Source of the DNA: an uncultured bacterium
Lineage (GTDB): Bacteria > Joyebacterota > Joyebacteria > Joyebacterales > Joyebacteraceae
Direction: 5' to 3'
Length of the DNA stretch: 29,472 nt
Assembly: GCA_964521425.1 (NCBI GenBank)
Contig: CAZFRO010000029.1
Span: 1 to 29,472, forward strand
The notes beneath the pieces are model-generated. The model was given only the letters and a program-made list of their open reading frames with translations. It did not search any database and was not told where the DNA came from. A program made the position numbers and the translations under genes. This document shows, one piece after another, positions 3,379 to 28,224 of the stretch (positions are counted from its first letter, which is position 1; each line of letters begins with the position of its first letter).

Positions 3379-3480
3379 TCCAGTCATCCTCCGCGATGAA
3401 CGATCTTCTCAAAACGCCGTGTTCAGGATAACATGACCTGCGCAACAGGGATAGTTCACTGAGTAGAATGGGAGGAGCAG

Positions 3481-7998: not shown

Positions 7999-8061
7999 AT
8001 CATCCCCTTCCACTCTGAAGGGTCGGGACAGAGGCGCCCCATTCTCGGCGCGACGCCGGCC

Positions 8062-13812: not shown

Positions 13813-13964
13813 GTTCCGACTAATCGCATTGTGTCCAGTATAGTCCCCATATGCCCAGCGGAGTCAAGCGGGATCTGGGGGAATGCCCCCCTGCCGCCGA
13901 CACCACGCTCCCCTTGAAATCGGCGACTGGCAGCGCCGTCCCTGATCCTATCCGCCACGCCCCG

Positions 13965-14000
13965 CACAGAAAAGAGCGGGCCCCATCGTGGGGCCCGCTC
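13965..14000 (-). terminator. Rho-independent terminator ending the hydrogenase-Mrp operon
   Basis: A perfect 11-bp stem gagcgggcccc / ggggcccgctc (13974-14000) with a 5-nt loop. On the minus strand it is followed by TTTTCTGTG (13973-13965). It lies 29 nt after the stop of the last operon gene. Confidence 0.65.
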
Positions 14001-14028
14001 TCGATATTCTCACATGCTTCTGTCGAGA

Positions 14029-14634
14029 CTAGCCCTGCCAGTCCTCCGTGATGTACACCTCGCGCCTGCACGATGGGCACATGACCCTGTATGAGTCACC
14101 CCTGCCGAGCGGCTTCTCGCCGCGCACAGGTGGATCGGTGGTCGCGTCGAGTTCCATGTTGAGCGCCGTCACGAGCACCGGGTTGGCCACCGCTAGTGAA
14201 CCGGTCTTACGCGCGATCCATATGAGGTGTTCCCGTGTCGTGATGACTCCACCGCAGGACTCACAATGGACGAGTTCCTTCTCGACCTTGGTTACGGCCT
14301 GGTCTCTGTCGAAGACGGCCAGCTCGTATTTCTCGTTCGAGAGGATGATGCCCTTCGTGGTCGTGCAGTAGGCCTCGCACTGCCCACAGAAGATGCAGTT
14401 ATCGAAATGGTGGACCAGTGTTCGCGTGCCATTCTCGTCCAGCACATCGATCGTATTCGCCGGACACACCTCCGCACACGCCCCACACCCGATACAGTCA
14501 TCCTCATGGAACTCCGGCTGGCCGCGGAAGGCGTCCGCCGGCTTCAAGGGAGTGAACGGGAACGTACTGGTGTACGGCCCCTTGATCACAGCAGTGATCG
14601 CTTCCTTGAGCTCCCGCACCTTTGGTGTCTTCAT
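14029..14634 (-). CDS. 2x[4Fe-4S] ferredoxin subunit (NuoI/HycF/MbhN-like) with an extra C-terminal CxxC...CxxC
   Basis: Two cluster motifs, CIGCGACAEVCP and CIFCGQCEAYC. A C-terminal HCESCGG...CPSCRRE forms a 4-Cys pair. GGGAG RBS. It is the last gene of the operon. Confidence 0.78.
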   Translation of the reverse strand: MKTPKVRELKEAITAVIKGPYTSTFPFTPLKPADAFRGQPEFHEDDCIGCGACAEVCPANTIDVLDENGTRTLVHHFDNCIFCGQCEAYCTTTKGIILSNEKYELAVFDRDQAVTKVEKELVHCESCGGVITTREHLIWIARKTGSLAVANPVLVTALNMELDATTDPPVRGEKPLGRGDSYRVMCPSCRREVYITEDWQG

Positions 14635-14661
14635 TGCTGCTCCCGTTTTCGTCGAGCGAAC

Positions 14662-15000
14662 CTACCGACCCGTGTCTTCCTTGTACCTGTCGACGACCGT
14701 GCCCTCCCAGAGCCTTACACCGGCGATGTGCGCGCCGCGGGCAAGGGCGTGGCTTCCGGTCGGTGACGTCCACAGCACGAAGACCGCGGCCAGGAGCGCC
14801 TTGATCCCCATTGCGTTCCATCCTGAGTGCACAAGCACGCCGATGAGGATGAGTAGCGTGCCAAGTGTGACGCACTTCGTCGCGGCCTGAAGCCTGTTGT
14901 AGACATCGGGAAGTCGAATCAACCCAAGCGCGCCGACAAGATCGAACGCGACGCCGATGGAGATAAGGATGATGGGTACGAGTCCTATCTGACTACTCAT
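14662..15000 (-). CDS. mrpG: Na+/H+ antiporter subunit G (MrpG/MnhG)
   Basis: The hallmark RLPDVYNRLQAATKCVTLG is present, with three TM helices. It overlaps mrpF by 8 nt. Confidence 0.82.
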   Translation of the reverse strand: MSSQIGLVPIILISIGVAFDLVGALGLIRLPDVYNRLQAATKCVTLGTLLILIGVLVHSGWNAMGIKALLAAVFVLWTSPTGSHALARGAHIAGVRLWEGTVVDRYKEDTGR

Positions 15001-15247
15001 CGAATCCCCTCCCCTCCAGGTACTTCGCCAGAGCCAGTGTTCCGATGAATGCCAGTAGAGCCCAGGCGATGGCGATGTTGAGATAGAAGTCCTGACCGGT
15101 CACGATTCCAAAGACGCCGCAGATCCCCACCACCATCACGCCGATCGTGTCTATCGCAACCGCCCTGTCAGGGGGCGTCGGTCCCCTTGCCACCCTGTAG
15201 AGGCACATGAAGCACCCCATGATCAGCAGAAACAGGATTACGGTCAT
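14993..15247 (-). CDS. mrpF: Na+/H+ antiporter subunit F (MrpF/MnhF)
   Basis: 84 aa. Motif GPTPPDRAVAIDT with two or three TM helices. Its start shares one nucleotide with the mrpE stop. Confidence 0.78.
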   Translation of the reverse strand: MTVILFLLIMGCFMCLYRVARGPTPPDRAVAIDTIGVMVVGICGVFGIVTGQDFYLNIAIAWALLAFIGTLALAKYLEGRGFDE

Positions 15248-15750
15248 CAGTCGAACACCCTCCTCAAAGTGACCTCAAAGCGACCCGCGATGTCCCTGGT
15301 GATCGCCTCAGCGTCCTCGATGTTCTCATGGACGTTGATCCAGTGAACATAGAGCCAGTCATCGATGATATCTATGGTCAGTGTGCCAGGCGTGAGCGTG
15401 ATCGAGTTCGCGAGAAACGCCTTGCCTTCGTCACTCTTCAGTATCGTCTTGACCTTGACGATTCCCGGTCTGATGGGCAGGTTCGGATGCAGCACCCGGT
15501 AGAGAACGTCGAAGTTCGCCACGATAATCCAGAGCATGAGCGAGAGCAGATGCATGATCGCCCAGAACCACCGCACCGGACTGAAGAGTCTCTCCGCGTT
15601 CTTCGGCAGAAGCCCCGACAGGCCCAGCGCAAACAGTACCGCCAGTACCGCCCCGACAACCACCCCCTGCCAGTCGAGAGACCAGGTCAGGAGTAGCCAC
15701 AGGGCAAAGTAGATTGTGAGATCCAGGAGCCTTCGCTTCAGTGTGTCCAT
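15247..15750 (-). CDS. mrpE: Na+/H+ antiporter subunit E (MrpE/MnhE)
   Basis: MrpE-like TM N-terminus and conserved C-terminal region. The ATG at 15750 has AAGGAG 9 nt upstream and lies just after the mrpD stop (15767-15769). The track start at 15801 would overlap mrpD by 35 nt. Confidence 0.75.
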   Translation of the reverse strand: MDTLKRRLLDLTIYFALWLLLTWSLDWQGVVVGAVLAVLFALGLSGLLPKNAERLFSPVRWFWAIMHLLSLMLWIIVANFDVLYRVLHPNLPIRPGIVKVKTILKSDEGKAFLANSITLTPGTLTIDIIDDWLYVHWINVHENIEDAEAITRDIAGRFEVTLRRVFD

Positions 15751-15766
15751 CAGTGCTCCTTGCCCC

Positions 15767-17299
15767 CTATCCGAGGACCAGCTGGATGTACTCTGCACCA
15801 TTCATAAGAGCGTCGCGGGCGGGTTCCAGAACGCGCGGTCCCACCACGGGGTACAGAAGCCCCATTCCGACGCAGGCTATCGCCAGGAGGATGAGAGGCA
15901 CATACATGAGGGCGGGAACCTCCCTCGCCTTCTCAACAAGATTCGACACGGTCCCGTAGATGATCTCCCGCTGGACCTTGATGTAGTAGACCAGCGTCAC
16001 AAATGCGAAGATGATGGCCACGATCGCGATCCCCGTATGCCCCGCCTTGATCGTTGCAATCAGGATCAGGAGCTTGCTCCAGAATCCGCTGAACGGGGGA
16101 ACTCCGGCGATGGAGAGCGCCGCCATGTTCGTCGTGAAGGACGTGACTGGCATCGTCTCTCTCAGGCCACCCAGCTGCTTCATGTCCCTGGTTCCGGTCG
16201 CGTGCTGGATAGCGCCCGATGAGAGGAACAGAAGAGACTTGAACGCGACATGGTTGAACAGGTGGAAGAGGCCGCCCAGTATCGCGAGGCCCGCGATCGA
16301 AAGCTGACCACCGGTGGCGAGCACACGTGCACCCACACCGATTCCCAGCATCACATACCCGATCTGTCCGATCGAGCTGTACGCCAGAAGCCGCTTGTAG
16401 TCCCACTGTCCGATCGCCAGAAGACCGCCGACAATGATCGACAGAATCGAGAACGCTATCATGGCGTTCGCGAATATGATCGATCCGGCAGAGCCGGTTG
16501 AGATGCCGTAGACATTGAAGAAGATACGACAGATGGCGTAGATGCCGAGGCTCTTGATGACCACACCTGAGAGCATCGCAGAGATCGGCGCCGGCGCAGA
16601 TGGATGTGCATCCGGGAGCCATGCGTGGAACGGCACGAGCGCCGCCTTCAGCCCGAAGCCCATCAGGAAGAAGGCACCGGCAAGAAGCAGCGCGGGGTTC
16701 ATCTCCCCACCGAACCTCATTGCGATCTCCTGCGCGACATCCGCCATGTTGAGAGAGCCGGTCACCGCATAGACGGTCCCGATCCCGAACAGCAGCATCA
16801 CGGATGCCACGCTACCCAGGATGAGGTACTTGAAACCCGCCTCGAGTTCCTCTGCTCCCACGCCGAATGCGACAAGCGCGTACGACGCGATCGATGCGAC
16901 CTCCAGGAATACGTAGAGATTGAAGAGGTCTCCCGACACAACCACCCCATTCATCCCGGCCACCATCAACATGAAGAGCGAGTAGTACTTGGTGAGACCC
17001 GTATACATCTGCATGTACTTGAGCGAGAAGAGAATGCAGAGGAATCCGACGACGTTGATCGCTATGAGCAACAACGTCGAAAGACCATCGCTCACGAGAG
17101 CGATTCCCACCGGCGGCGCCCAGCCGCCCATGTGATACACGGCCGCCGGCCTGGTCACCTGCAGGACCGCCATGATCGCCAGTATCAGCGAAAACAGTGG
17201 GGCGAGGGTCTGCCCGCTCTTCTTCCACCAGACCCCGAGAAGGGGAATGAGGAAAGCTGCTCCGAGCGGGATCGCGACATAGAGTGGTAAAGGGTTCAT
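15767..17299 (-). CDS. mrpD: Antiporter-like subunit MrpD (NuoM/N family)
   Basis: 510 aa, polytopic. It has the conserved NuoL/M/N proton-pumping core, including the PFHAWLPDAH block. GAGGGG RBS. Confidence 0.85.
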   Translation of the reverse strand: MNPLPLYVAIPLGAAFLIPLLGVWWKKSGQTLAPLFSLILAIMAVLQVTRPAAVYHMGGWAPPVGIALVSDGLSTLLLIAINVVGFLCILFSLKYMQMYTGLTKYYSLFMLMVAGMNGVVVSGDLFNLYVFLEVASIASYALVAFGVGAEELEAGFKYLILGSVASVMLLFGIGTVYAVTGSLNMADVAQEIAMRFGGEMNPALLLAGAFFLMGFGLKAALVPFHAWLPDAHPSAPAPISAMLSGVVIKSLGIYAICRIFFNVYGISTGSAGSIIFANAMIAFSILSIIVGGLLAIGQWDYKRLLAYSSIGQIGYVMLGIGVGARVLATGGQLSIAGLAILGGLFHLFNHVAFKSLLFLSSGAIQHATGTRDMKQLGGLRETMPVTSFTTNMAALSIAGVPPFSGFWSKLLILIATIKAGHTGIAIVAIIFAFVTLVYYIKVQREIIYGTVSNLVEKAREVPALMYVPLILLAIACVGMGLLYPVVGPRVLEPARDALMNGAEYIQLVLG

Positions 17300-17302
17300 T
17301 GG

Positions 17303-17650
17303 CTATCCCCTCAGCTTGCTGATCACGGACATGTCAAAGGTGCCGTGCTTCTCGTAGAGCCGAATGCACATTGCCACCATGAGAGACAGGACACCCAGGC
17401 CGATGACGATAGACGTCAGAACCAGAGCCTGTGTAAGGGGGTCCACAAAACGCTCAAGGGTGGCAACCGGCATGTTCGGCTCGATGATCGGCGCCACACC
17501 GCCGTTCTTGTACCCGACGATGATGAGATACAGATTCACGGCGTAGTCCATGATGACTATCCCGAGAATCTTCTTCACGATGTTCTTCTTGGCCACGAGA
17601 CAGTAGAGCCCCATTGTCAGAAGAACTATGCACATGAAATAGACGGTCAT
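17303..17650 (-). CDS. mrpC: MrpC/MnhC (NuoK-like) subunit
   Basis: 115 aa with three TM helices. It overlaps mrpB by 4 nt. Confidence 0.78.
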   Translation of the reverse strand: MTVYFMCIVLLTMGLYCLVAKKNIVKKILGIVIMDYAVNLYLIIVGYKNGGVAPIIEPNMPVATLERFVDPLTQALVLTSIVIGLGVLSLMVAMCIRLYEKHGTFDMSVISKLRG

Positions 17651-18102
17651 GCCAGTTCATCCTCGATCATGGCCCTGAAGGAACGCCTACGGAAGACCGC
17701 CAGCGCCGAGAAAACCAGGAAGAGCGAGCTACCGACCTTGAACGCGATAGCAATGTTGAGCGGCAGGATCATCCCCGAACTTAAGAGCCGGAACGCTTCC
17801 CCCCTGCCGAAGGTGTTCATGAAGAAGAAACCGACGGTCACACCGAACCAGCCGATGAGCAGGAACATGAGAGCTCCTGCGCTGTCGAGAATGTGGGCCG
17901 TCTTCTCCGGCATCTTGGAGAAGGCCACTTCCTTCCCGTGTGCAAGCATCAGAAGGATGAAGGCGCATGCGATGATCACGCCTCCGGCGAATCCGCCGCC
18001 GGGTGTCAGGTGGCCATACAGCACGATATACGTGCCGAAGACTATGATGAAACCAACAACGAAGTCCGTGATCGTCTTGACTATGAGAGTCATACCGTTC
18101 AT
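17647..18102 (-). CDS. mrpB: MrpB/MnhB subunit
   Basis: The hallmark HLTPGGGFAGG is present, with four TM helices. It overlaps the upstream ORF by 4 nt. Confidence 0.8.
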   Translation of the reverse strand: MNGMTLIVKTITDFVVGFIIVFGTYIVLYGHLTPGGGFAGGVIIACAFILLMLAHGKEVAFSKMPEKTAHILDSAGALMFLLIGWFGVTVGFFFMNTFGRGEAFRLLSSGMILPLNIAIAFKVGSSLFLVFSALAVFRRRSFRAMIEDELA

Positions 18103-18656
18103 GCGGCGACCACCTCCTCTTCCTTCCTCTTCCCGTCTTTTCTCAGGAGCGCCAGGGCTCCGATAATCGACGTGAAGAGCACTGTCGCCTCGCCCATCGT
18201 GTCGTATGCCCGGAAGTCAAGGATCACCGACGATACGATGTTGGCGCAGTACGTCGCGGGAAGCCCGGTGTGTACGTACACCCTCGACACGCGCATGAGT
18301 GGCTCGCCAAACTCGGGGAAGCCCCTGCCCCCAAAGATCATCGCCCCAAACCCGAGGACCAGCCCGAAGAAGATCAGTGATGTCACGACCGCCAGAGTAT
18401 CTCGATGCGATTCGACCGCCGTGTTGTCGAGAAGGATCGTTCCCCTGATCAGGATGATCAGTACGAGAACCTCAACAACCAGCTGTGTGATCGCGATGTC
18501 GGGCGCTCCAAGAAAGAGGAACGCGACAGACAGCGCGAAGCCGACCGCAGCCACCGAGATCACAGCGGACAGGAGGTTCCTGGTCTCAATGGCCACGATC
18601 GATCCCACGATCATGAACACCAGGAGTGCATAGAGCTGAGGAGTGATGTTTTCCAT
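18099..18656 (-). CDS. MnhB-domain (DUF4040, MrpA C-terminal-like / MbhD-like) membrane protein
   Basis: GAPDIAITQLVVEVL matches the MnhB/DUF4040 signature that normally forms the C-terminus of MrpA. Here it is a separate ORF. Confidence 0.68.
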   Translation of the reverse strand: MENITPQLYALLVFMIVGSIVAIETRNLLSAVISVAAVGFALSVAFLFLGAPDIAITQLVVEVLVLIILIRGTILLDNTAVESHRDTLAVVTSLIFFGLVLGFGAMIFGGRGFPEFGEPLMRVSRVYVHTGLPATYCANIVSSVILDFRAYDTMGEATVLFTSIIGALALLRKDGKRKEEEVVAA

Positions 18657-18710
18657 TAACTCGTCTCCCGCCTGTCTCGAGCAACCTTGTGTGTCATCCC
18701 AAAATGCCCA

Positions 18711-20600
18711 CTACCTGCCGGCCATTTCCTTTAGCAGTGCCGTCAGTACCGCGAATACTATCGCACCGAGACCTATGACGCACCACGCGAGGTACGTCGA
18801 CAGGACGCCGCTGTGTAGAGACTTCAGCGCCTTGACGAAGACATCGCCGACCCGGCCGCCAACCACGTGGACGTCGAATACCTTCTGCTCGGCGTTCATG
18901 TAGAAGCCCTTGAACGGGATCATTTCCTTGATCGTGTTGTAGAAGCCCGTCCCGGTCACGTGCATCGCATCCATGCGCTCCGGCGGTCTCGTACCGCCGA
19001 TGAAGACATGGCCTACCCGCCTCTTCGTGAGTTTCCCCACCACTACCACGCCCAGCCCGACAATGATGCCCACGATGATAAGCCCGGTCGCACTTGCCGG
19101 ATCCCAATACCCGGCGCCGAGCGTGATCGCGCCTGCCGGCGTTGTGTCGACTGCCCCATGGACGATTGGATTGATGAACCTGTCCAGCGGGAACTTCGCC
19201 CAGACACCGAAGAGAACACAGAGGCCCGCGAATACGATCAACGGGATCCGAATGAACCAGGACGCCTCTCTCACGTGACTAAGTGCGCTCGGCTGCTGCC
19301 CAAGGAAGGCCGAGTAGAGAACCTTAACAAACGACGCGAGCGTCAGCGCACTTCCGAAGAGGGCGACGACAATGAAGATCCAGTACGCGCTGAAGCCTCT
19401 GCCACCCAGCTCGACAATGCCGGTGTAGATCATCCACTTCGAGACGAAGCCGTTGAACGGAGGCACACCGGAAATCGCGAACGCCGCGATTGCCATGGTG
19501 ATGAACGTGACAGGCATCGCCTTGGCGAGACCTCCCAGTTTTGAGATCTCCGTCGTTCCCGCCTGCTTCTCAATAGACCCGGCCCCAAGGAACAGACACG
19601 ACTTGTAGATGGCATGGTTGAGCATGTGGAAGATGCCGCCGGCGATGGCTATCGGGATTCCGGTGCCGATACCTAGCACCATGTACCCGACCTGGCTGAT
19701 CGCGTGGTACGAGAGCAGCACCTTGAGGTCGTGCTGGATGAGCGCCATCATAACGGCCGCGAATATCGTCACCGCACCTATGATCATAAGGACGAGCGAG
19801 AGACCTGGCCCTATGCTGAAGATGTCGAGACTGATTCTCGCAAGAAGATAGATTCCCAGAAGCTTGTCGATCGATGCCGGGAGCAGTGCCATCACCGGCG
19901 TCGGTGCGCCCTTGGCCGCAGCGGGAATCCACGTGTGAAACGGCATTGCGCCGGCCTTGGTGATCGCACCGATCATCAGAAGCAGATAGATGAACGTGGA
20001 CATCGGGGCGGCGACAAAGATCCTGAGATGGCTCATTGAGAGCGTGCCGTACTTGACCCAGATCAGAGCGACGGCAAGGAAGAGCGCGGCATCGGAGAAA
20101 CCGAGCATAAGGAAGCTCTTCGATGCACCATCGGAGGCCTCAGCACGCTTCTTGCCCAGGTTGATATACAGGTAGAGGATCGCGGTCAGCGCCTCCCAGA
20201 AGATAAGGAGGATGAGCAGACTGTTCGAGAGCACCGCACCGCAACTGGCCGCCACCGTCCAGAGCAGATAGGCGTAGTAACGCCTCCCATCGTGCTCCTT
20301 GTCGAGCCAGCCGATCGAGTAGATCCCCACACCTAACCCAAACAGACCCACAAACACGATGACAAAGGCACTGAAGTGGTTGAGCAGCAGGTCGAACTGA
20401 ACGTCAAGGCTGCCAAACACCACCCAGTCCTTCGTGAACGAGAGCGGCCACTGTCCGAACAGCTGGAGCGCAGCAACCAACGCCCACGCGGTGCCCGCAA
20501 TTGCGATCACCTCCCTGACGCCCTTGACCCGTTTCGGTACGAAGAGACAGAGCAGGCCGGCGACGGCAGGGATGATTATGGGAACCAGAATCTGTGGCAT
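18711..20600 (-). CDS. mrpA: MrpA/NuoL-like antiporter subunit (HyfB/MbhH-like)
   Basis: 629 aa, polytopic, with a NuoL-family core (GWLDKEHDG..., PTPVMALL..., HAISQVGYM...). It lacks the MrpB-like C-terminal fusion. Confidence 0.85.
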   Translation of the reverse strand: MPQILVPIIIPAVAGLLCLFVPKRVKGVREVIAIAGTAWALVAALQLFGQWPLSFTKDWVVFGSLDVQFDLLLNHFSAFVIVFVGLFGLGVGIYSIGWLDKEHDGRRYYAYLLWTVAASCGAVLSNSLLILLIFWEALTAILYLYINLGKKRAEASDGASKSFLMLGFSDAALFLAVALIWVKYGTLSMSHLRIFVAAPMSTFIYLLLMIGAITKAGAMPFHTWIPAAAKGAPTPVMALLPASIDKLLGIYLLARISLDIFSIGPGLSLVLMIIGAVTIFAAVMMALIQHDLKVLLSYHAISQVGYMVLGIGTGIPIAIAGGIFHMLNHAIYKSCLFLGAGSIEKQAGTTEISKLGGLAKAMPVTFITMAIAAFAISGVPPFNGFVSKWMIYTGIVELGGRGFSAYWIFIVVALFGSALTLASFVKVLYSAFLGQQPSALSHVREASWFIRIPLIVFAGLCVLFGVWAKFPLDRFINPIVHGAVDTTPAGAITLGAGYWDPASATGLIIVGIIVGLGVVVVGKLTKRRVGHVFIGGTRPPERMDAMHVTGTGFYNTIKEMIPFKGFYMNAEQKVFDVHVVGGRVGDVFVKALKSLHSGVLSTYLAWCVIGLGAIVFAVLTALLKEMAGR

Positions 20601-20618
20601 CTACTTTCCCCCGAGCCT

Positions 20619-21791
20619 CTAGAGATTCTTCTTAAGCCATTCGGTCTTCTGGTGACTCAGCTTGATAAGATCATGTCCGTTCGCGATTCTCTTGCCGCCT
20701 GGGTCGATCACAGCGATGCGCTCCGTGCAGCTGTAGCACGGGTCGATGATCGCGAAAATGACCGTGGCGTCTGAGATGCTCTCGCCCTTCACGCGCGGTC
20801 GATAGGACGGGATGTTCACGAAGGTTGGCGCCCTCATCTTATGCCGCTCGGGCATGTTCGTGCCGTTCGAGCGGATGAAGTGGAAGCACTCGCCGCGCGG
20901 GGCTTCAACGTGACCGATTCCCTCTCCCCGCGGGATCTCGCGAACCTCACTCCTGATCTCCCCGCCGGGCAGCTTCTTGATGCACTGCTGGACGATCTTG
21001 ACCGACTCCAATATCTCGAGAAGCCTCACCACAGCCACAGCCAGCATATCGCCATCGGGCTGGGTGATGACCTTCCAGTCAACCTCGTCATACGCGCCGT
21101 ACGGTTCGTCTCTGCGGACGTCGATGTCAACGCCTGAACCTCGCGCGGTCGGACCAAGAACGCCGTACGCGACCGCGTCCTCATTGGTCAGGATGCCGAC
21201 GCCCTTCAAGCGTCCCAATATGACCGGGTCGTTGAGAATGGCGCCGATGAGCATGTTGGTCTTCTCCACAAACTCATCCATTGCCTTCAGTACTGGTGGC
21301 CAGACATCATCAGGAACCTCGCGCCTGACACCACCTGGGCAATACCACGCGTAGTTGTTCCTGTTTCCGGTGATTGCCTCGAGCGCGTCGAGGATCGGCT
21401 CCCGGTACTTCCAGCCCCACATGAAGACGGTCCAGTAGCCGATGATGTGTCCGGCAAGTCCTACCCAGAGCATGTGGCTGTGCAGCCGCTCCAGCTCGTG
21501 GACGATGGTTCTCAGATAGCGCGCACGATCAGGAACGACGATCCCGCCGATATCTTCCATCGCAAGGGTCGCTGCCCAGCTGTGTGAAGCCGAGCAGATA
21601 CCGCAGATTCGCTCAACCAGGAACACGTCCTGATCGAACGTCTTCTCCTCGGCCAGAAGCTCCATCCCTCTGTGGATGCGCCCGAGATCCATGTCGGCGC
21701 CCACCACAGTCTCCCCCTCGACCTGCAGAGTGATATACTCCGGCTCCTCGAGGAGAGGATGGAATGGCCCAATGGGAATGGTTGTGCTCAT
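20619..21791 (-). CDS. Group 4 [NiFe]-hydrogenase large subunit (NuoD/HycE C-terminal/MbhL-like)
   Basis: N-terminal NiFe motif ERICGICSASHSW (RxCGxCxxxH) and C-terminal DPCYSCTER (DPCxxCxxR). A roughly 30-aa extension follows, consistent with maturation-protease processing. Confidence 0.9.
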   Translation of the reverse strand: MSTTIPIGPFHPLLEEPEYITLQVEGETVVGADMDLGRIHRGMELLAEEKTFDQDVFLVERICGICSASHSWAATLAMEDIGGIVVPDRARYLRTIVHELERLHSHMLWVGLAGHIIGYWTVFMWGWKYREPILDALEAITGNRNNYAWYCPGGVRREVPDDVWPPVLKAMDEFVEKTNMLIGAILNDPVILGRLKGVGILTNEDAVAYGVLGPTARGSGVDIDVRRDEPYGAYDEVDWKVITQPDGDMLAVAVVRLLEILESVKIVQQCIKKLPGGEIRSEVREIPRGEGIGHVEAPRGECFHFIRSNGTNMPERHKMRAPTFVNIPSYRPRVKGESISDATVIFAIIDPCYSCTERIAVIDPGGKRIANGHDLIKLSHQKTEWLKKNL

Positions 21792-22220
21792 TTATTCGTC
21801 TCTCCTCATTGCATGGAAGTCTGCCGGTCTGTCATGGGAGGAGAGTATCTTGCGCGGATCCGGATGGTCGACGAACTCAACGCCCAAGAAATCGAAAATC
21901 TCTCGCTCGATGAAATCTGCAGCCGGGTAGTACTTCGTAAGCGCTTCTATTTTTGGGAATGGCTTGTCGAGTGTTGTTCTGATGTTTACAACCGTGCCCT
22001 CACGATCAATTGCGAAGTGGTACAGGAGCTCCACCCCCGTTGACCGATCGCTCCCCGTCGCCGTCGTAAGCCTCCCCCCCTCCACCTCGTACATGTGCCG
22101 TGTCACAGCAATCCAGTCGTCATTCGAGACCGCGACATACGCACGCTTGTGGTTGTGTTCGTAGATCTCCACGCGGTCGCCGAACTTCGCCTTCAAGTTC
22201 TCAAGAACCTGTTTGCTCAT
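21792..22220 (-). CDS. NuoC-like subunit (30 kDa family; HycE N-terminal domain equivalent, MbhK-like)
   Basis: NuoC-fold sequence. The ATG at 22220 has GGGGAG 10 nt upstream; the track start at 22259 has no RBS. Its stop abuts the large-subunit ATG with no gap. Confidence 0.78.
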   Translation of the reverse strand: MSKQVLENLKAKFGDRVEIYEHNHKRAYVAVSNDDWIAVTRHMYEVEGGRLTTATGSDRSTGVELLYHFAIDREGTVVNIRTTLDKPFPKIEALTKYYPAADFIEREIFDFLGVEFVDHPDPRKILSSHDRPADFHAMRRDE

Positions 22221-22299
22221 CGTCTTGTCACTCCCCGAGCCCGGGCCTTTGGGCGGCAACCCCGCACCGCTTCCTTCACCACCGGCTCATCCTGTTCAG

Positions 22300-22713
22300 C
22301 TAGAGCGTCCCCAAGAGCTTCACGACCGCGCCGATGATTGCCTCGGGTCGCGGAGGGCACCCTGGGACATACGCGGCGACCGGAACATGCTTGTCGACAG
22401 GTCCCGCGAAGTTGTACCCGTCCTTGAAGATCCCGCCCGTGCACGCACACGCCCCGATAGCTATAACCACAGCCGGCTGGGGCGCCTGCTCGTATGCTTC
22501 GATCAGATCGGGCACGACCTTCCGCGGCACGCTGCCCGAGACCAGAAGCACATCGGCGTGCTTCAAGCTGCCGACGAGCTTCATCCCGAAGCGCTCCACG
22601 TCGTACTTCGGGCACAGACAATCGAGAACCTCGATGTCACAGTTGTTGCACGCGCCCGCGTTCAGATGGAACAGCCACAACGACTTCTTGAATCCCCACT
22701 TGGTTGCGTCCAT
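22300..22713 (-). CDS. [NiFe]-hydrogenase small subunit (NuoB/HycG/MbhJ-like)
   Basis: Proximal cluster Cys ligands GACNNCDIEV, GACACTGG and VPGCPPRPE. Confidence 0.85.
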   Translation of the reverse strand: MDATKWGFKKSLWLFHLNAGACNNCDIEVLDCLCPKYDVERFGMKLVGSLKHADVLLVSGSVPRKVVPDLIEAYEQAPQPAVVIAIGACACTGGIFKDGYNFAGPVDKHVPVAAYVPGCPPRPEAIIGAVVKLLGTL

Positions 22714-22735
22714 GTGCTCCCCGTCCGCTCGCGAC

Positions 22736-23674
22736 CTAGAATCCGAGGATCGCGAGAATCATGCCGACGACCGCTATCACGGTGACAGGTCCCCAGAAGA
22801 ATCTGACGGCCTGGTCGATCCTGACCCTCGGAGTTGTGTTCTTGATGAGAACAATGATCACAATGATTATCACGTACTTCACGATCGTGTAGAGAATGCC
22901 CCACCCCGAGAGAACCAGTCCACCCCAGAAGACCGTGATAAGGAAGATGGGCAGCGTGAAGAGCATCATGGCCTGCTGAAGCTTGATGACGGCAAGTGCC
23001 GCGCCCGAATACTCTATGTGCGTCCCGTCCATCAGCTCAGTTTCAGCCTCCGGGATGTCGAACGGCGGGAACGTGAGCTTCGCCTGAACAACCAGAATGC
23101 AGACGATGAATGCCAGAATGCAGGAGGCGTTGCCAAGAAGCACACCGTTGGCCGCCTGGTACTGGAGAATGCCGTCAAGTCTCAGTGTCATCGGGGACAC
23201 CTTGGTGACGGCCGTGAAGATCGCGATGACAAACGGAAGCTCGTACGCAAGGACGAGCTTCATTTCGCGGCTGGCGCCGATGCTGGCAAGCGGATTACTC
23301 GATGCGGAAGCGCCTAGAATGATCCCGAGCGAGGGAATCGTCAGAAGGTAGATGACACCGATGAGATCTCCGACGAAGCCCGTGCCGTGCATGTTGGTGA
23401 GCCAGAGCATCGTGGACACAACACCAACGGCGGCAAGTCCGGCCATTGGTGCGAATAGGAATCCCGCCCGCCTCGCTCCAGCCGGTATGATTATCTCCTT
23501 GCCCATCAACTTGAGGACGTCGGCGAACGGCTGGTACCACGGCGGGCCGACCCTCCACTGGACCAGCGCACTCACCTTGCGGTCAATCCACTGCGTCACG
23601 AGCCCTATCACCGCCGTGAAGAGCAGACCTGGGAAGATGAGAAAGCTCAGAACCAACCCGAGTGTTGAAGCCAT
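22736..23674 (-). CDS. NuoH-like membrane subunit (HycD/EchB/MbhM-like)
   Basis: 312 aa with eight TM helices. It carries the conserved NuoH-family charged loop regions. Confidence 0.82.
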   Translation of the reverse strand: MASTLGLVLSFLIFPGLLFTAVIGLVTQWIDRKVSALVQWRVGPPWYQPFADVLKLMGKEIIIPAGARRAGFLFAPMAGLAAVGVVSTMLWLTNMHGTGFVGDLIGVIYLLTIPSLGIILGASASSNPLASIGASREMKLVLAYELPFVIAIFTAVTKVSPMTLRLDGILQYQAANGVLLGNASCILAFIVCILVVQAKLTFPPFDIPEAETELMDGTHIEYSGAALAVIKLQQAMMLFTLPIFLITVFWGGLVLSGWGILYTIVKYVIIIVIIVLIKNTTPRVRIDQAVRFFWGPVTVIAVVGMILAILGF

Positions 23675-23728
23675 CCTGTTACCTCTCTCGTTGACTTGAA
23701 TGCAGAAGGGTCTCGTTCGACGGGCCCG

Positions 23729-24247
23729 TTACCTCGGCCTCCTCACCGTCTTCATCACACTACGGGCTCCGCGCATCGGAACGCCCTTCTGAGCTTCCAC
23801 GTCGCTGATGTCCTCGAAGGTCCGAGCCCCCGAGACGCACGTCCCGGCACACATCGAATCCTTCGCCTCGAGAGTTCGCCAGTTGCAGAGATCACACTTG
23901 TCGAGCGTGTGCCGCGTCTTCAGGAGATCGATCGCCCCGAAGGGACACGCCTGCGCGCACGACGTGCAACCACTGCACTTGATGTTGCTGCGAATGACCA
24001 GACCGTCATCGCGACGCTGAATCGCCTCCTGCGGGCACGCCGCTTCACAGAGCGGCTGCTCACAGTGTCGGCAGTTCATCTGCAGCACAATGTTCGTCAT
24101 GATAGGCGAAGCCTCAAGCTGGTTCTGCATGTTGTGCGAGTAGAAGCATGCCGCGAGGCAGCTCTTGCAGCTGATGCAGCGTCCGTAGTCGAGGACGTTT
24201 CTGTTGTTCATCCAGCTCTCCTGCTTTATCGCGCTCGCGCGGTCCAC
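23729..24247 (-). CDS. HycB-like poly-ferredoxin (four [4Fe-4S] motifs)
   Basis: Four Cys clusters: CISCKSCLAAC, CRHCEQPLCEAACP, CSGCTSCAQACP and CDLCN...C. Confidence 0.78.
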   Translation of the reverse strand: MDRASAIKQESWMNNRNVLDYGRCISCKSCLAACFYSHNMQNQLEASPIMTNIVLQMNCRHCEQPLCEAACPQEAIQRRDDGLVIRSNIKCSGCTSCAQACPFGAIDLLKTRHTLDKCDLCNWRTLEAKDSMCAGTCVSGARTFEDISDVEAQKGVPMRGARSVMKTVRRPR

Positions 24248-24270
24248 TGGTGGCGGCGCCGCGTCAGCCG

Positions 24271-25959
24271 TTAGTCCTCCGGCACAATCTTCACGTCGGA
24301 GGAGGTTACATCAAACCACTTGGTGCCGGCGTTCAGGGTCCAGACCATGAGCCCTCGCGCGTCAGGTACATATGAGGGAATGGCCACGAGCCCTGGTGGC
24401 ATCCTGTCCGTCACAGTTGTTATGAGGCGAGTCTCGCCTCTCCCTGTCGAGATGGCCACGGTCGAGCCCTGCTCGATGCCGGCCTCATCCGCCGCCTCTT
24501 CAGAAAGCCACATCTCGCAGTATGGATTCTGCGCCTGCGGGAAACTCATACGTCCCGTCAGCGTTCCGTCCCAGCGATGCAGCGGACTGATGCTCTCGAC
24601 AAGCTCGAGCCCACCACCGGGCGCGCTCGCAAGCTTGCCAAGCGCCGCGTTCACGTCCACGGCCAGCTCTGAGTGCGTGGCGGTTGCCCCGCCCGCCGGA
24701 ATCCCAATCCCCATCTCGGCCGCGATGTCCGCCATCATCATCCCGACAGACCTCGCGTCGCCCTGTGGCTTCGCGCACGTATCGAGCGATGTTGAGAAGC
24801 CAAACGACGGTGAGTAGCTTCCGTTGAATTCCGTCCAGACTGCCTGCGGCAGCCCGACATCGCTGTGCTTCGATGTGTCGTTCTCAAAGATCGCGGAAGC
24901 CGCGAGAAACTCAAGGCTCTCCAGATCCTCCGGACTAACTGCCCCCGGATAGAGCTGCACAAGATCCGGCCCTAACACCAGGAGTCCCTTGATTCTCTTG
25001 TCGGCAACACCAGACAGGATCTCCGCTGCGGTCCGGTTGGAACTGACGCGCTCGTAAGCGCCTATAGCATTCCCACCTCTAAAGAGAGGCGCGTACTTGC
25101 CGCCCGCGGCAGATGCGAGCTTCGCTGCGAGAAGACCCGTAAGATAACCGGATGTAGAGTCGCCGAGTCTCGAAGAGACGACGACAACGACCTTCTGGGA
25201 GTTGCGGAGCCCCGCAGCAATCCTCTCGATTCCAGCCTTCGACATTCCGCCCGCGGCTGCCGCCGCCTCAACATCCACGGAAGGTGAACCTTGTACGTTC
25301 ATGGCCTTGAGCAGAGCGGCCAGAATGAGGGGTTCGCTTCCGGCCGGCGGCTCGATGTGCAGATCGGCGAACCAGTCGGTGTTGGAACGGTAAGGATTGA
25401 TAGTGATGATCTGATTCGACCTGCTCTTGTGTCTTGCCTCAATGATGCGCTTCGACACGGTCGGGTGCCCCCAGAACACATCCCCGATCAGGACAAAGCA
25501 GTCCGCTTCGTCGAGATCCTCCGGGGTTGCATCGCCGGCTCCACCGCCCGTGAGCAAGCCGTAGTCGTTCCCGTCGTAGGCAACGCCTATGCTCGTGGTG
25601 CCAAGAACGTGTGTGGCGAAACCGACGGCCGCATCGTAGTCCTCGTTCGAGAGCTCTGTCCCGACGATGACACCGAGCGCATCGGCTCCATGGTTCGTCT
25701 TTATCTCGTCCATCTTCCCGGCCATCTTCGTCACCGCGACAGACCACGGCACTCTCCGCCGGTTGACGGTAGCCGCGAGGAATCGCTTCGGGTGAAGAAG
25801 GATTTCGAGGTTGTAGTGTCCTCTGGCGCAGAGCGACCCGCGGGACAGAGGCGACTCCTCATCGAAGTCTACCCTCACGGGCACTCCTTGGTCGACCTCC
25901 ACCGCGAACCCGCACTGGAGGGAGCAGATGAGACAAGACGCCTTCCTGATCTCTGGCAT
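24271..25959 (-). CDS. Molybdopterin-oxidoreductase family subunit, FdhF-like but non-canonical
   Basis: N-terminal 4Fe-4S ligands C9, C12, C16 and C44 align with FdhF C8, C11, C15 and C42. A C-terminal MGD-cap-like domain is present. The region aligning to FdhF CCARVU(Sec140)HGP reads GVAYDGNDYG, so no Sec or Cys is there. There is no in-frame TGA. RBS CAGGGGAAG. Confidence 0.7.
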   Translation of the reverse strand: MPEIRKASCLICSLQCGFAVEVDQGVPVRVDFDEESPLSRGSLCARGHYNLEILLHPKRFLAATVNRRRVPWSVAVTKMAGKMDEIKTNHGADALGVIVGTELSNEDYDAAVGFATHVLGTTSIGVAYDGNDYGLLTGGGAGDATPEDLDEADCFVLIGDVFWGHPTVSKRIIEARHKSRSNQIITINPYRSNTDWFADLHIEPPAGSEPLILAALLKAMNVQGSPSVDVEAAAAAGGMSKAGIERIAAGLRNSQKVVVVVSSRLGDSTSGYLTGLLAAKLASAAGGKYAPLFRGGNAIGAYERVSSNRTAAEILSGVADKRIKGLLVLGPDLVQLYPGAVSPEDLESLEFLAASAIFENDTSKHSDVGLPQAVWTEFNGSYSPSFGFSTSLDTCAKPQGDARSVGMMMADIAAEMGIGIPAGGATATHSELAVDVNAALGKLASAPGGGLELVESISPLHRWDGTLTGRMSFPQAQNPYCEMWLSEEAADEAGIEQGSTVAISTGRGETRLITTVTDRMPPGLVAIPSYVPDARGLMVWTLNAGTKWFDVTSSDVKIVPED

Positions 25960-25984
25960 GTCGACTTCCCCTGAGACTGATCAG

Positions 25985-26830
25985 TTAGAATGGATCCTCG
26001 AACGAGGCGACCTGTGCCGCCGTCATGACGGGTCCGTCCTTGCAGATGTAGAGCTCGCCCATCATGCAGTGCCCGCACTTACCTAGCCCACAGCTCATGT
26101 TGCGCTCCATCGAGTGGTAGATGTTCTCCGGCTTGAAGCCCTTCTCGAGAAGCGCGATGTTCACGAACTTAAGCATGATCGGGGGCCCACAAACACAGGC
26201 GACGGCCGTCTCCGCGCTGAACGGCAACCCTTCGACATCGACGGTGGTGAGAAGAGGCAGATCGTCAAGAAGCACCGTTACTACACCCACCTTGCCGGTC
26301 CAGTTCTCTGCCGGCTCGTCGATCGTCAGCAACACCTCAGTGTTCTTCATCTTCTCCCACTCGCGGAGAAGGTCCTTGAAGATAACGTCTTCGGGCGTCC
26401 TCGCTCCGTAGCGGATCGACACCTTCTTGTAGCGATCGATGTCGTCGAAGAGTGCCAAGATGAGCGACCGAAGCGGGGCCAGTCCAACGCCGCCGCCCAT
26501 TATCAGAATCTCTTTGCCGTCGAAGTCGGCCATGTTGTAGCCGTTGCCGTACGGCCCACGGATCCCGACGGTGTCTCCCACCTTCATCTTTGTGAGCGCG
26601 TGCGTCACCGTGCCGACGTCCATGATCGTGATCTCCATCGTCTCTGTGACGTTGGGGTTCGACGACGGCGTGAATGGAGCCTCTCCAACTCCCGGCACCG
26701 TAAGCTCAACGAACTGACCCGCCGCAAAGGTAAGTGGCTCCTTTGGACGGAATCTGTAGGTTGTGATGTTCGGGGACTCCTGCTTGATATCCTCGATCAC
26801 ACTCTCTATTGGCCTGTAGATGTTCTTCAT
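25985..26830 (-). CDS. FAD/NAD(P)-binding [2Fe-2S] oxidoreductase subunit (HydG/AsrB/PyrK-like)
   Basis: FNR-like fold. The C-terminal CGLGKCGHCMMGELYIC is a 2Fe-2S motif. The start is reassigned to the ATG at 26830, which forms an ATGA overlap with the upstream stop. The track start at 26923 would overlap the upstream gene by 97 nt. Confidence 0.78.
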   Translation of the reverse strand: MKNIYRPIESVIEDIKQESPNITTYRFRPKEPLTFAAGQFVELTVPGVGEAPFTPSSNPNVTETMEITIMDVGTVTHALTKMKVGDTVGIRGPYGNGYNMADFDGKEILIMGGGVGLAPLRSLILALFDDIDRYKKVSIRYGARTPEDVIFKDLLREWEKMKNTEVLLTIDEPAENWTGKVGVVTVLLDDLPLLTTVDVEGLPFSAETAVACVCGPPIMLKFVNIALLEKGFKPENIYHSMERNMSCGLGKCGHCMMGELYICKDGPVMTAAQVASFEDPF

Positions 26831-27894
26831 GCCTTTGCCATCTCCGTGACGACGTGCTTGATAGATTCCCTCATATCGATCCGGCCCATGCAGACATCGA
26901 TGCATCTGCCGCAGCCGGTGCACGAGACCGCGCCGTACCTGTCACGTGAATACTCCAACTTGCAGCGAATACGATTCTCCAGGCGCTGTGGCAGGTTCGG
27001 CCTCGAGTTGCCGCCTCCACCGGTCCTGGCATAGCCGATTGACAGACAGGTGTCCCAGTTCCGTGTTCGCTCGTAGCCGCCCTCCGCCCTCTGGTCCACA
27101 AGCAGGAAACACGTACACGACGGACAGGTGCGATTGCAGGCTCCGCAGCCGACGCAGTTCTGCGTGACGTATGCCCACGCGGCCTCGTCGCTACCCAGCT
27201 CGTGTTTGTCGTGGGCGACGTCGACTGCGTACTGAGCGTTCTGACGCTCGACGGCCGCCGTCACCGAGGCTCGGCTTCTGCTCCGCTCATCCTTGTGATT
27301 CGAGTCGACCGGAGTGAAGAGGTCGTCGCTCCCATCGAGGAGCTTCTCCCCCTTGTCCGAGCCGGTCGTGAGGATGTACCCGGACTCAAGCGGAGAGATG
27401 TTGAGATCGAATCCTTCGTCGACATACGGCTTCCCACCCATCATCGTGCAGAAACAGGTCTCCTTCGACGCGGTACAGTCGACGGAGACGAGGACGGTGT
27501 TCTGCCGCTTCTCAATGTAGAACGGGTCGTCGTATTCCTCTGTGAAGTGCTTCGTGCTCCAGTAGACCTTGTCGAATTTCTCGAGACCATCAAGGTCACA
27601 GGCCCGCGGTCCTACGACGATCGTCGCCGGCGCCTCCACGCTCGCCTCGGGATCGCTGCTCGGATACTTCGCGACCACCTCGCGCGCGTAGAAGAGGAAC
27701 GTCTTGGGGGACTGTGCTGGGCACGCCCCGTGGAGCTCAAGTTTGTCGGGGACCTCTTCCTTCACCAGCTCGTAGTCGGGTGTCTCCGAGTTGTTCATGA
27801 TGTCGAACGTGACCGGGACGTAGACCCTCTGGTTCTTGGCCCAGCGCCCGATGAGCTTGAGGAGGTTCTCTCGTCCGATGAAGACTTCTTTCAT
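26827..27894 (-). CDS. Iron-sulfur subunit (HydB/AsrA-like)
   Basis: Motifs CVGCGACNRTCPSC and CTGCGRCIDVC plus additional Cys. The start is reassigned to the ATG at 27894 (MKEVFIG...), which has GAGAGGG upstream. The upstream 45 codons of the track ORF (GTG at 28029) use AT-rich codons (AAA, GAA, CAA, AGA) that are atypical for this genome. Confidence 0.72.
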   Translation of the reverse strand: MKEVFIGRENLLKLIGRWAKNQRVYVPVTFDIMNNSETPDYELVKEEVPDKLELHGACPAQSPKTFLFYAREVVAKYPSSDPEASVEAPATIVVGPRACDLDGLEKFDKVYWSTKHFTEEYDDPFYIEKRQNTVLVSVDCTASKETCFCTMMGGKPYVDEGFDLNISPLESGYILTTGSDKGEKLLDGSDDLFTPVDSNHKDERSRSRASVTAAVERQNAQYAVDVAHDKHELGSDEAAWAYVTQNCVGCGACNRTCPSCTCFLLVDQRAEGGYERTRNWDTCLSIGYARTGGGGNSRPNLPQRLENRIRCKLEYSRDRYGAVSCTGCGRCIDVCMGRIDMRESIKHVVTEMAKA

Positions 27895-28224
27895 CCTGGC
27901 AAGCCCTCTCGCTTGGAGTTCTTTCGTTTTATCCGGCCGGCTCGTACGAGCCGTACGACCTTCCTGAGCGTAAATAAACCCCACATCGCTATTCGCTAGG
28001 AAAGCGATCCCGGGGTCTTTGTGTGCCACAGAGGTGGCTGGAACGCACCAGTCGTTGCCAGCAAGTAACAGTCAGTCCTTTCAACTGATTGTTGCTCGCG
28101 GGGCGAAGCCTGTGCGCTCTCCGCCCGCGCCACGGAACAAAAACGGGCCCGTATCGAGCCCTTATAGCCCAAGAGAGTCTAGCGGCCGGTGCGCGAACTG
28201 TCAAGCGCAAAAGGGGATAATCAG
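27895..28224 (-). promoter_or_regulatory. Leader/promoter region of the hydrogenase-Mrp operon, containing a 16-bp perfect palindrome and an upstream inverted repeat
   Basis: CGGCTCGTACGAGCCG (27938-27953) is a perfect palindrome 44 nt upstream of the ATG, with the direct repeat TCGTACG x2. ATCGCT-N12-AGCGAT lies at 27985-28008. An AT-rich patch taaataaa lies at 27971-27978 in an otherwise GC-rich context. Confidence 0.4.

Follow-up and report, generated by a model that had tools for sequence, protein, structure and literature searches.

We analyzed a 29,472-nucleotide (nt) stretch of DNA from an uncultured bacterium (contig CAZFRO010000029.1; the whole stretch is called the window hereafter), in which an earlier note based on the sequence alone had described a 17-gene operon for a [NiFe] hydrogenase, an Mrp-type antiporter and an NAD(P)H- or formate-type input module. 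We found 17 consecutive open reading frames (ORFs) in the same direction on the minus strand (Table 1), and searching the window ORFs against Pfam gave scores above the gathering threshold for the families named in that note. Following the gene calls on identical public contigs, four starts were trimmed, those of the HydB-like (27894, not 28029), HydG-like (26830), NuoC-like (22220; 142 amino acids, aa) and MnhE (15750; 167 aa) genes, which brings the unit to 14029..27894 (14029..28029 untrimmed). After trimming, the intergenic gaps range from -8 to +79 nt, with five overlapping junctions, three of which are 4 nt long. The tightly packed unit described before is thus present with all its 17 ORFs, and the bounds proposed for it, a leader palindrome and an intrinsic terminator, were also found (Table 1). 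The gene letters hunA to hunP used here were inferred from the accessible text of Glass et al. (10.1101/536078), in which a 16-gene operon was named 'hun'.

Table 1. Genes and other features of the operon, in the order of transcription, followed by the elements around it (window coordinates).
Feature	Position	Strand	Match or property
hunA, AsrA/HydB-like Fe-S subunit, 355 aa	26827..27894	minus	Pfam Fer4_22, 82.9 bits
hunB, AsrB/HydG-like FAD/NAD(P)-binding [2Fe-2S] subunit, 281 aa	25985..26830	minus	Pfam FAD_binding_6, NAD_binding_1 and DHODB_Fe-S_bind above cut-off
FdhF-fold molybdopterin-like (Mo-like) subunit, 562 aa	24271..25959	minus	Pfam Molybdop_Fe4S4, Molybdopterin and Molydop_binding
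hunC, HycB/CooF-like polyferredoxin	23729..24247	minus	Pfam Fer4_11, 62.8 bits; 16 Cys, four [4Fe-4S] motifs
hunD, NuoH/MbhM-like membrane subunit	22736..23674	minus	Pfam NADHdh, 209.9 bits
hunE, NuoB-like hydrogenase small subunit	22300..22713	minus	Pfam Oxidored_q6, 107 bits; CxxC...C...C(PP)
hunF, NuoC-like	21792..22220	minus	Pfam Complex1_30kDa, 74 bits
hunG, [NiFe] large subunit	20619..21791	minus	Pfam NiFeSe_Hases and Complex1_49kDa
hunH, MrpA N-terminal part, NuoL-like antiporter subunit, 629 aa	18711..20600	minus	Pfam Proton_antipo_M, 199 bits
hunI, MrpA C-terminal part, MbhD and MbhE fused, 185 aa	18099..18656	minus	Pfam MbhD, MbhE
hunJ, MrpB/MnhB	17647..18102	minus	Pfam MnhB, 86.8 bits
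hunK, MrpC/NuoK-like	17303..17650	minus	Pfam Oxidored_q2, 81.6 bits
hunL, MrpD/MbhH-like antiporter subunit, 510 aa	15767..17299	minus	Pfam Proton_antipo_M, 216 bits; NCBIfam PRK08376, 410 bits
hunM, MrpE	15247..15750	minus	Pfam MNHE, 124.8 bits
hunN, MrpF	14993..15247	minus	Pfam MrpF_PhaF, 73.9 bits
hunO, MrpG	14662..15000	minus	Pfam PhaG_MnhG_YufB, 94.3 bits
hunP, HycF/NuoI-like 2x[4Fe-4S] subunit	14029..14634	minus	NCBIfam NF009053, 106.7 bits
Intrinsic terminator	13965..14002	minus	14-bp perfect stem then UUUUCUGUG; -29.9 kcal/mol, z = -4.4
Sigma-70-like promoter TTGACA-17-TAGACT	28176..28204	minus	10/12 matches; both hexamers conserved
Promoter-proximal hairpin and T-tract, terminator-like	28136..28161	minus	weak alone, z = -1.5
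Leader inverted repeat AACAATCAGT-N7-ACTGACTGTT	28067..28093	minus	conserved in L005, L007, L008 and L018
Three Band_7/SPFH genes	28225..29229	minus	positions 1..3567 of L001
155-aa ORF	13345..13812	minus	no family match
Promoter-like site TTGACT-17-TATACT	near 13838..13866		precedes the 155-aa ORF
1557-aa protein	8675..13348	minus	Peptidase_C25, NosD/beta-helix and FlgD_ig domains
FG-GAP-repeat protein	7063..8013	minus	
200-aa ORF	8062..8664	minus	DNRLRE-domain match below threshold, 28.6 bits for a cut-off of 34

The sequence predicts a group-4 [NiFe] hydrogenase core made of NuoB-, NuoC-, NuoD-, NuoH- and NuoI-like subunits. In the large subunit HunG, the L1 motif RICGICSASH and the L2 motif DPCYSCTER align with the same motifs of Pyrococcus furiosus MbhL, and C63, C66, C352 and C355 are invariant among 10 relatives and present in 86 related loci. 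The proximal-cluster cysteines of the small subunit HunE are Cys22, Cys25, Cys89/91 and Cys119. Among solved structures, HunG scored best with P. furiosus MbhL (263 bits) and then with Escherichia coli HycE (241 bits), the NuoD chains of complex I coming lower, and the NCBIfam NuoD model reached 311 bits, below its cut-off of 360. With all four Ni-Fe cysteines present, the NiFe motifs are intact, as the earlier note stated, and a complex-I NuoD without a NiFe site is ruled out. HunG carries a C-terminal extension of 32 aa, its relatives are all extended by 31-49 aa, and about 18 of 28 relatives have hycI downstream of the operon. Since both the extension and the position of hycI in relatives speak for it, a matured, active Ni-Fe enzyme is expected, whose protease would be encoded elsewhere in the genome. 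The C-terminal extension of HunP holds two extra CxxC pairs (Cys124/127 and Cys186/189), the family model spanning residues 18-142 only; these pairs may form a zinc ribbon or an additional metal site.

The membrane arm contains all seven Mrp families (by Pfam and NCBIfam), so that MrpABCDEFG is complete as first described, with MrpA split into ORFs of 629 and 185 aa. HunH is matched end to end by the NuoL model and HunI aligns to residues ~600-770 of the MrpA models; the latter ORF, labelled an MnhB-domain protein at first, is really the C-terminal part of MrpA. Hydrogenase, full Mrp set and HydB/HydG-like module hence stand in one operon: we found neither a NuoD-like large subunit lacking the NiFe site nor a sign that the Mrp genes are transcribed separately from the hydrogenase genes.

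The 5' part of the unit encodes the input arm. HunA has two CxxCxxCxxxC motifs and seven further cysteines. The best PDB matches of HunA and HunB, both full-length, are the beta (9nez_B, 140 bits) and gamma (9nez_C, 173 bits) subunits of sulfhydrogenase I. HunB has two conserved motifs, GGxGxxP for the dinucleotide and a Cys motif for [2Fe-2S], and 50 of 50 relatives retain both. In P. furiosus sulfhydrogenase I, beta and gamma together make up the NADPH diaphorase.

HunG was found residue for residue on 23 metagenomic contigs. Proteins with 85-94% identity to the Mo-like subunit are encoded in five metagenome-assembled genomes (MAGs), four labelled Candidatus Eisenbacteria and one 'bacterium'. 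Homologues of the large subunit formed a group of 77-85% identity and a second, large group of ~60% identity, whose members include Omnitrophota, Planctomycetota and Margulisiibacteriota; three contigs of this second group, assigned to these same phyla, share the gene order of the window. By scanning metagenomes of the Joint Genome Institute (JGI) with a large-subunit alignment, we confirmed at least 578 stretches, kept 80 loci (cited below by L numbers) and used tblastn to place the 17 window proteins on all of the loci. Every locus reaching far enough has, on one strand, the order HydB-HydG-[Mo-like]-Fer4_11-NuoH-B-C-LSU-MrpA-MbhDE-MnhB-MnhC-MrpD-MnhE-F-G-HycF, where LSU is the large subunit, and the apparent absences of HydB or HydG all lie at contig ends. 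Since this order recurs in more than 50 loci from several phyla, the arrangement is not due to chance. A variant with a reduced membrane arm was seen in four loci (L031, L041, L070 and L095), all of them with a Mo-like gene: it has two antiporter-like subunits, lacks MbhD/E, MnhB, MnhE, MrpF and MnhG, and in its membrane arm resembles Hyf. A NuoK-like gene is present in L031, L041 and L095 and was not detected in L070.

The Mo-like gene between hunB and hunC is the variable member of the set. In 40 of the 51 loci with both HydG and Fer4_11, the 15-282 bp between the two matches leave no room for it, while 6 of the 51 carry the full-length Eisenbacteria type and 5 carry distant forms of 379-485 aa without domain IV. 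In alignments to FdhF of the hydrogen-dependent CO2 reductase (HDCR) and to the F420-dependent formate dehydrogenase (F420-FDH), the position of the hCARxC/U-H site of formate dehydrogenases reads Val-Ala127-Tyr128 after a deletion; no Cys occurs between residues 44 and 154, and neither Cys nor selenocysteine (Sec) in 104-150. A127 is invariant in 83 Eisenbacteria-type sequences longer than 530 aa and in the 5 distant forms, and the N-terminal [4Fe-4S] cysteines (C9, C12, C16 and C44) are kept wherever the N-terminus is complete. The score with the NCBIfam Fdh-alpha model TIGR01591 was low, 125 bits for a cut-off of 666.

An exhaustive HMMER search with the Mo-like family against 1.84 billion representatives returned 70 clusters with E values of 1e-30 or less. 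The best ~100 matches are 446-620 aa long, share 24-34% identity and mostly align over most of their length. About 100 distant clusters of the family lack the Cys/Sec motif and keep an Asp equivalent to D132; canonical formate dehydrogenases with 'CARLCHAP' appear only further down the same list. Three distant relatives lie, on their own contigs, between HydG-like and Fer4_11 genes in the same type of operon, and a fourth (P0224) is on a 2-kb contig too short for gene context. These distant forms were reached via the large-subunit alignment and HMMER, scanning the contigs with the single Mo-like protein having returned close Eisenbacteria relatives only. Against PDB, the family profile scored 193 bits with F420-FDH, 188 with HDCR FdhF, 135 with FdhH and 56-71 with NuoG. 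The AlphaFold2 model of the subunit (pLDDT 80, pTM 0.87) has a complete four-domain FdhF fold and superposes on FdhF in formate hydrogenlyase (FHL; 7z0t_A) with a TM score of 0.82, on FdhH/FdhF with 0.75-0.82 and on NuoG with 0.65-0.74; as Foldseek matches both FdhF and NuoG, its result fits a subunit with cofactor as well as one without. By these comparisons, the Mo-like family descends from cytoplasmic formate dehydrogenases; it is an old class of Cys-less subunits dedicated to these hydrogenases, and its members are not formate dehydrogenases. By analogy with the degenerate molybdopterin domain of NuoG, the subunit most likely acts as an Fe-S relay or scaffold.

A further ORF of ~220 aa stands between hunC and hunD in L014 (7507..8184), L031, L041, L070 and L074, these proteins being 62-67% mutually identical and, by eye, helical-repeat/TPR-like; in our sample, it occurs only in operons with a distant or shortened Mo-like gene. 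We considered the 225-aa ORF of L014, which comes after a shortened Mo-like gene, as a candidate for the missing domain IV and rejected it, since BLAST showed no similarity between it and the window protein; by eye it is helical-repeat/TPR-like, with no recorded Pfam match. In L098 (4100..4756), a 218-aa ORF without Pfam match is likened to it by position only.

The regulatory context of the relatives also bears on the input arm. In nine loci (L014, at 2948..3705, L025, L032, L063, L068, L073, L081, L089 and L090), rex is the gene directly upstream of hunA (Rex model score 263 bits for a cut-off of 126); for comparison, hunA is preceded by 1.5 kb or more of sequence in 33 loci, and two of the nine rex loci fall slightly short of this length. 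In L014, a perfect Rex box TTGTGAAAGATTTCACAA precedes rex and a one-mismatch box lies ~40 bp before hunA. Of the eight other rex loci, L025 has no Rex box, and each of the remaining seven has one with 2-3 mismatches whose position, ~40-55 bp ahead of rex, is conserved. Since Rex is a sensor of the NADH/NAD+ ratio, the expression of these rex-hun operons is probably tied to the pyridine-nucleotide pool.

The combination of modules, which the earlier note took to be unusual, is already in the literature. In the accessible text of Glass et al. (10.1101/536078), the Hun modules are HunAB (AsrA/B-like), HunC, HunEFGP (Ni-Fe) and the membrane sets HunDHILK and HunIJKLMNO, with an optional gene for a 4Fe-4S molybdopterin-domain protein between hunB and hunC; HunG is typed as HydDB group 4g with a CGIC-CYCC signature, and the carriers are MAGs of Atribacteria, Firmicutes, Omnitrophica, Elusimicrobia and Bacteroidetes as well as cultured Kosmotoga. 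Compared with that text, the window has the same 16 genes in a fitting order plus the optional molybdopterin gene at the same place. It differs by its L2 motif (CYSC instead of CYCC, CGIC being common to both), by its host, Eisenbacteria not being among the host phyla named there, and by the donor, which is ferredoxin in the published account whereas the present evidence favours NAD(P)H. Among the 86 related large subunits, L2 reads DPCYCCTER in 57 and DPCYSCTER in 29 including the window, and it is the CYCC signature of those 57 that ties the sampled family to HunG. The same set of genes was called an 'enigmatic' group-4 hydrogenase in Saganbacteria RX5A by Matheus Carnevali et al. (PMC6349859), and 'Mbh-Mrp-oxidoreductase type', of unknown function, in Elusimicrobia by Méheust et al. 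(10.1101/765248). Hydrogenase, Mrp-like, cooF-like, asrA-like and asrB-like genes are common to these operons and the window, and so is an FdhH/NapA-like molybdopterin protein that defies classification and has a single 4Fe-4S domain, so that only the host differs. Mrp-linked Mbh clusters of Omnitrophota, Cloacimonadota and Auribacterota, known here by description only, have likewise been typed 4g and assumed to be ferredoxin-driven. Thus, the architecture is not new, and the window holds a new, complete Eisenbacteria example of the Mo-like-gene variant of the Hun, or Mbh-Mrp-oxidoreductase, family. We are highly confident that this is a hun-type operon of Candidatus Eisenbacteria, which encodes the three parts of one predicted membrane complex: the group-4 hydrogenase core, the membrane arm with all seven Mrp modules and its two large antiporter-like subunits, and a cytoplasmic arm for electron input.

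Since the dinucleotide motif of HunB is kept in 50 of 50 relatives and rex lies upstream of the operon in nine loci, we favour NAD(P)H over ferredoxin as the donor. We would give roughly even chances to the proposal that the input arm is an NAD(P)(H) diaphorase and the complex a reversible, ion-coupled NAD(P)H:H+ oxidoreductase. Electrons from NAD(P)H would then pass through the HydG-like subunit, by way of its FAD and [2Fe-2S] cluster, to at least two [4Fe-4S] clusters of the HydB-like subunit, then via one [4Fe-4S] cluster of the Mo-like subunit, four of the polyferredoxin and two of the HycF-like subunit to the proximal cluster of the NuoB-like subunit and to Ni-Fe; the Cys patterns of the subunits form a plausible wire from FAD to Ni-Fe. 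H2 formation from NAD(P)H is uphill at standard conditions and near equilibrium at low H2. Because the reaction is near equilibrium or uphill, the Mrp-type arm would couple it reversibly to the movement of Na+ or H+. Ion influx could drive H2 evolution from NAD(P)H or, in the other direction, H2-dependent NAD(P)+ reduction could pump ions. If Rex releases the operon when NADH is high, H2 evolution would be the favoured direction, with ion influx meeting its cost.

Several observations weigh against this NAD(P)H-coupled reading. The scores of HunA and HunB with the NCBIfam equivalog models of HydB and HydG (140 bits for a cut-off of 750 and 178 for 650) are far too low for orthology, so these subunits are homologues and not orthologues of the sulfhydrogenase subunits. 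The window itself contains no rex gene, its leader has no Rex box at up to 3 mismatches, and Rex is present in just about a quarter of the sampled loci. No hyp or hycI maturation genes lie within the window, and the literature searched contained neither a biochemical test of Hun nor any functional follow-up on it. Moreover, HydDB describes group 4g as 'ferredoxin-coupled (putative)', and ferredoxin is the donor in the model published for 4g enzymes and, in the accessible text (10.1101/536078), for hun. This makes the main rival a ferredoxin-driven enzyme of the Mbh type, in which reduced ferredoxin would feed H2 formation through HunA/B/C while Mrp exports Na+ or H+ for ATP synthesis, the NAD(P) domain being vestigial or limited to a side role. 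The closest solved large subunit is indeed that of a ferredoxin-dependent enzyme, MbhL, and the polyferredoxin and HycF-like subunit could take electrons from ferredoxin directly; however, an FAD/NAD(P) subunit that is universal and has an intact GGxGxxP motif is hard to explain if unused, and P. furiosus Mbh manages without such a module. Rex control in nine loci suggests a link to the NADH/NAD+ balance instead, and the solved homologues of HunA and HunB act as an NADPH diaphorase. On this evidence we consider a ferredoxin-driven complex rather unlikely, with a chance that is still appreciable.

Two other readings give the Mo-like subunit a catalytic role. If the complex were a formate-respiring one, like FHL or Fdh-Mfh-Mnh, this subunit would oxidize formate and pass the electrons on via the polyferredoxin. 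Its descent from cytoplasmic formate dehydrogenases (with F420-FDH, HDCR FdhF and FdhH as best profile scores), the likeness of its model to FdhF of FHL and a HycB-like neighbour as in FHL would fit. The formate-type input suggested in the earlier note nevertheless fails at the catalytic position, where Ala127-Tyr128 replace Cys/Sec-His; since the Mo-like family lacks the Cys/Sec ligand motif, with CARxCH missing in ~100 clusters, formate input is unlikely. The poor match to TIGR01591 adds to this, as does the fact that the subunit is missing or shortened in 45 of the 51 operons, and we regard a formate-oxidizing complex as very improbable. A molybdoenzyme can also do without Cys or Sec: Nar-type enzymes are Asp-ligated, and arsenite oxidase has no protein ligand. 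By analogy, the subunit might act on another substrate with a non-Cys ligand (for example Asp132) or no protein ligand, linked to H2 and/or NAD(P)H. The forms of 555-620 aa do keep domain IV, the GDxxxxxP and NP...TxWFA motifs and an invariant Asp, in a complete fold (pTM 0.87), and the conservation of the full FdhF fold, of motifs resembling a pterin site and of Asp132 in the Eisenbacteria subunit also leaves some weight to a bound cofactor and a catalytic role. But sister operons use the 379-485 aa forms without domain IV or no such subunit at all, no substrate-specific residues were identified, and the rest of the operon suggests no substrate. Such a catalytic role therefore seems improbable to us.

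We then compared the operon with characterized systems. P. furiosus Mbh (PDB 6CFW, group 4d) has in common with it the MbhD/E, MnhB, MnhC, and MrpD-, E-, F- and G-like membrane modules. In contrast, Mbh takes electrons from ferredoxin directly, without HydB/HydG, polyferredoxin or Mo-like subunits, and has one large antiporter-like subunit where the window operon has two. The chain of MbhL stops at the L2 motif, and that of the window large subunit has an extension of 32 aa. E. coli FHL-1 (7Z0S/7Z0T, group 4a) shares an FdhF-fold subunit beside HycB-like and HycF-like subunits and a C-terminally extended large subunit, and the hycI gene after the operon in the relatives is a further likeness; FHL-1, however, lacks the Mrp E/F/G and NAD(P) modules, and its FdhF has Sec140-His141, absent from the window protein. 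P. furiosus sulfhydrogenase I (9NEZ, group 3b) carries its beta/gamma module on a soluble group-3 hydrogenase dimer, unlike the window. The resemblance to the fdh-mfh-mnh clusters of Thermococcales, proposed at first, holds at the level of modules and goes no further. Compared by description, Fdh2-Mfh2-Mnh2 of Thermococcus onnurineus (group 4b) combines, within a single cluster, an oxidoreductase with a group-4 hydrogenase and a module of the Mrp type. It is archaeal, uses a genuine formate dehydrogenase, has no AsrA/AsrB-like module and follows another gene order. HydDB describes group 4b as formate- or CO-respiring and Mrp-linked.

Complex I offers another comparison. There, NuoG has a cofactor-less molybdopterin-fold domain derived from formate dehydrogenase in the input arm, on the same core as the window complex; but the NADH site of NuoE/F is not homologous to HydB/HydG, and NuoD has no Ni-Fe ligands and reduces quinone. 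Somewhat more tentatively than for the diaphorase itself, we propose that Hun complexes in general may be ion-motive-force-coupled NAD(P)H:H+ oxidoreductases, that is a proton-using complex I. The Cys-less FdhF-derived subunit would then either have arisen independently in parallel with, or be left over from, the step that gave NuoG its dead molybdopterin domain, and the family could represent a living intermediate between FHL and complex I.

To our knowledge, group 4g is the one large class of energy-converting hydrogenases that is without biochemical characterization, and metagenome papers routinely label it as ferredoxin-driven. If coupling to NAD(P)H is true, the metabolism reconstructed for Omnitrophota, Atribacterota, Elusimicrobiota, Eisenbacteria and other lineages would have to be revised, and the question of how fermenters and syntrophs drive electrons from NADH to H2 would be answered directly. 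As a proton-using complex I, these enzymes would allow anaerobes to get rid of NAD(P)H by making H2 through reverse electron transport, or else to gain energy when H2 drives NAD(P)+ reduction. The Cys-less FdhF-fold subunit gives a concrete case for the passage from catalytic molybdoenzymes to structural Fe-S subunits, as in complex I. The contribution of the window itself is modest, namely one extra phylum and a clean, complete 17-gene example.

Upstream of hunA, both promoter hexamers are kept in five related loci (L005, L007, L008, L016 and L018) despite diverged flanking DNA. The promoter-proximal hairpin is kept in L005, L007 and L008, with a stem change from T.G to T-A, and is possibly an attenuator, or else the terminator of the upstream Band_7 gene. 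The leader of ~275 nt (27895..28170, minus strand) folds better than shuffled sequences (z = -3.5), and its minimum free energy structure pairs the 5' hairpin region with a distal segment. Within it, the inverted repeat was retained where the rest of the leader sequence diverged. Searching Rfam with the whole window at gathering scores and with the leader at E up to 10 returned no credible match. The leader element could be an attenuator, a riboregulator or an operator.

Other regulators were found in two loci, L013 (1..3465) and L097 (65..2813), where genes for a histidine kinase and a sigma-54-dependent response regulator precede the operon. In L013, these come after the 3' end of another [NiFe] large-subunit gene, a fragment that matches generic NiFe(Se) models only. 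This arrangement hints at two-component, possibly H2-responsive, control.

Of the three Band_7/SPFH genes directly upstream of the operon, the last stops 20 nt short of the -35 box of the hun promoter, and on a longer public contig the first shows a fusion with a Cation_efflux domain. On the other side of the terminator, the 155-aa ORF overlaps the 1557-aa gene by 4 nt. The 1557-aa protein has a type IX secretion system (T9SS) type A sorting domain (TIGR04183, 29 bits for a cut-off of 23) and a weak PorU-sortase-like match. The earlier note had deduced from this cargo protein a host of the Fibrobacteres-Chlorobi-Bacteroidetes (FCB) type; the T9SS domain is there, but the FCB placement does not follow NCBI, which puts Candidatus Eisenbacteria under 'Bacteria candidate phyla'. 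Downstream of the T9SS cargo gene lie the genes for the FG-GAP-repeat protein and the 200-aa ORF, and the FG-GAP, DNRLRE-like and T9SS cargo genes may form a cell-surface gene cluster.

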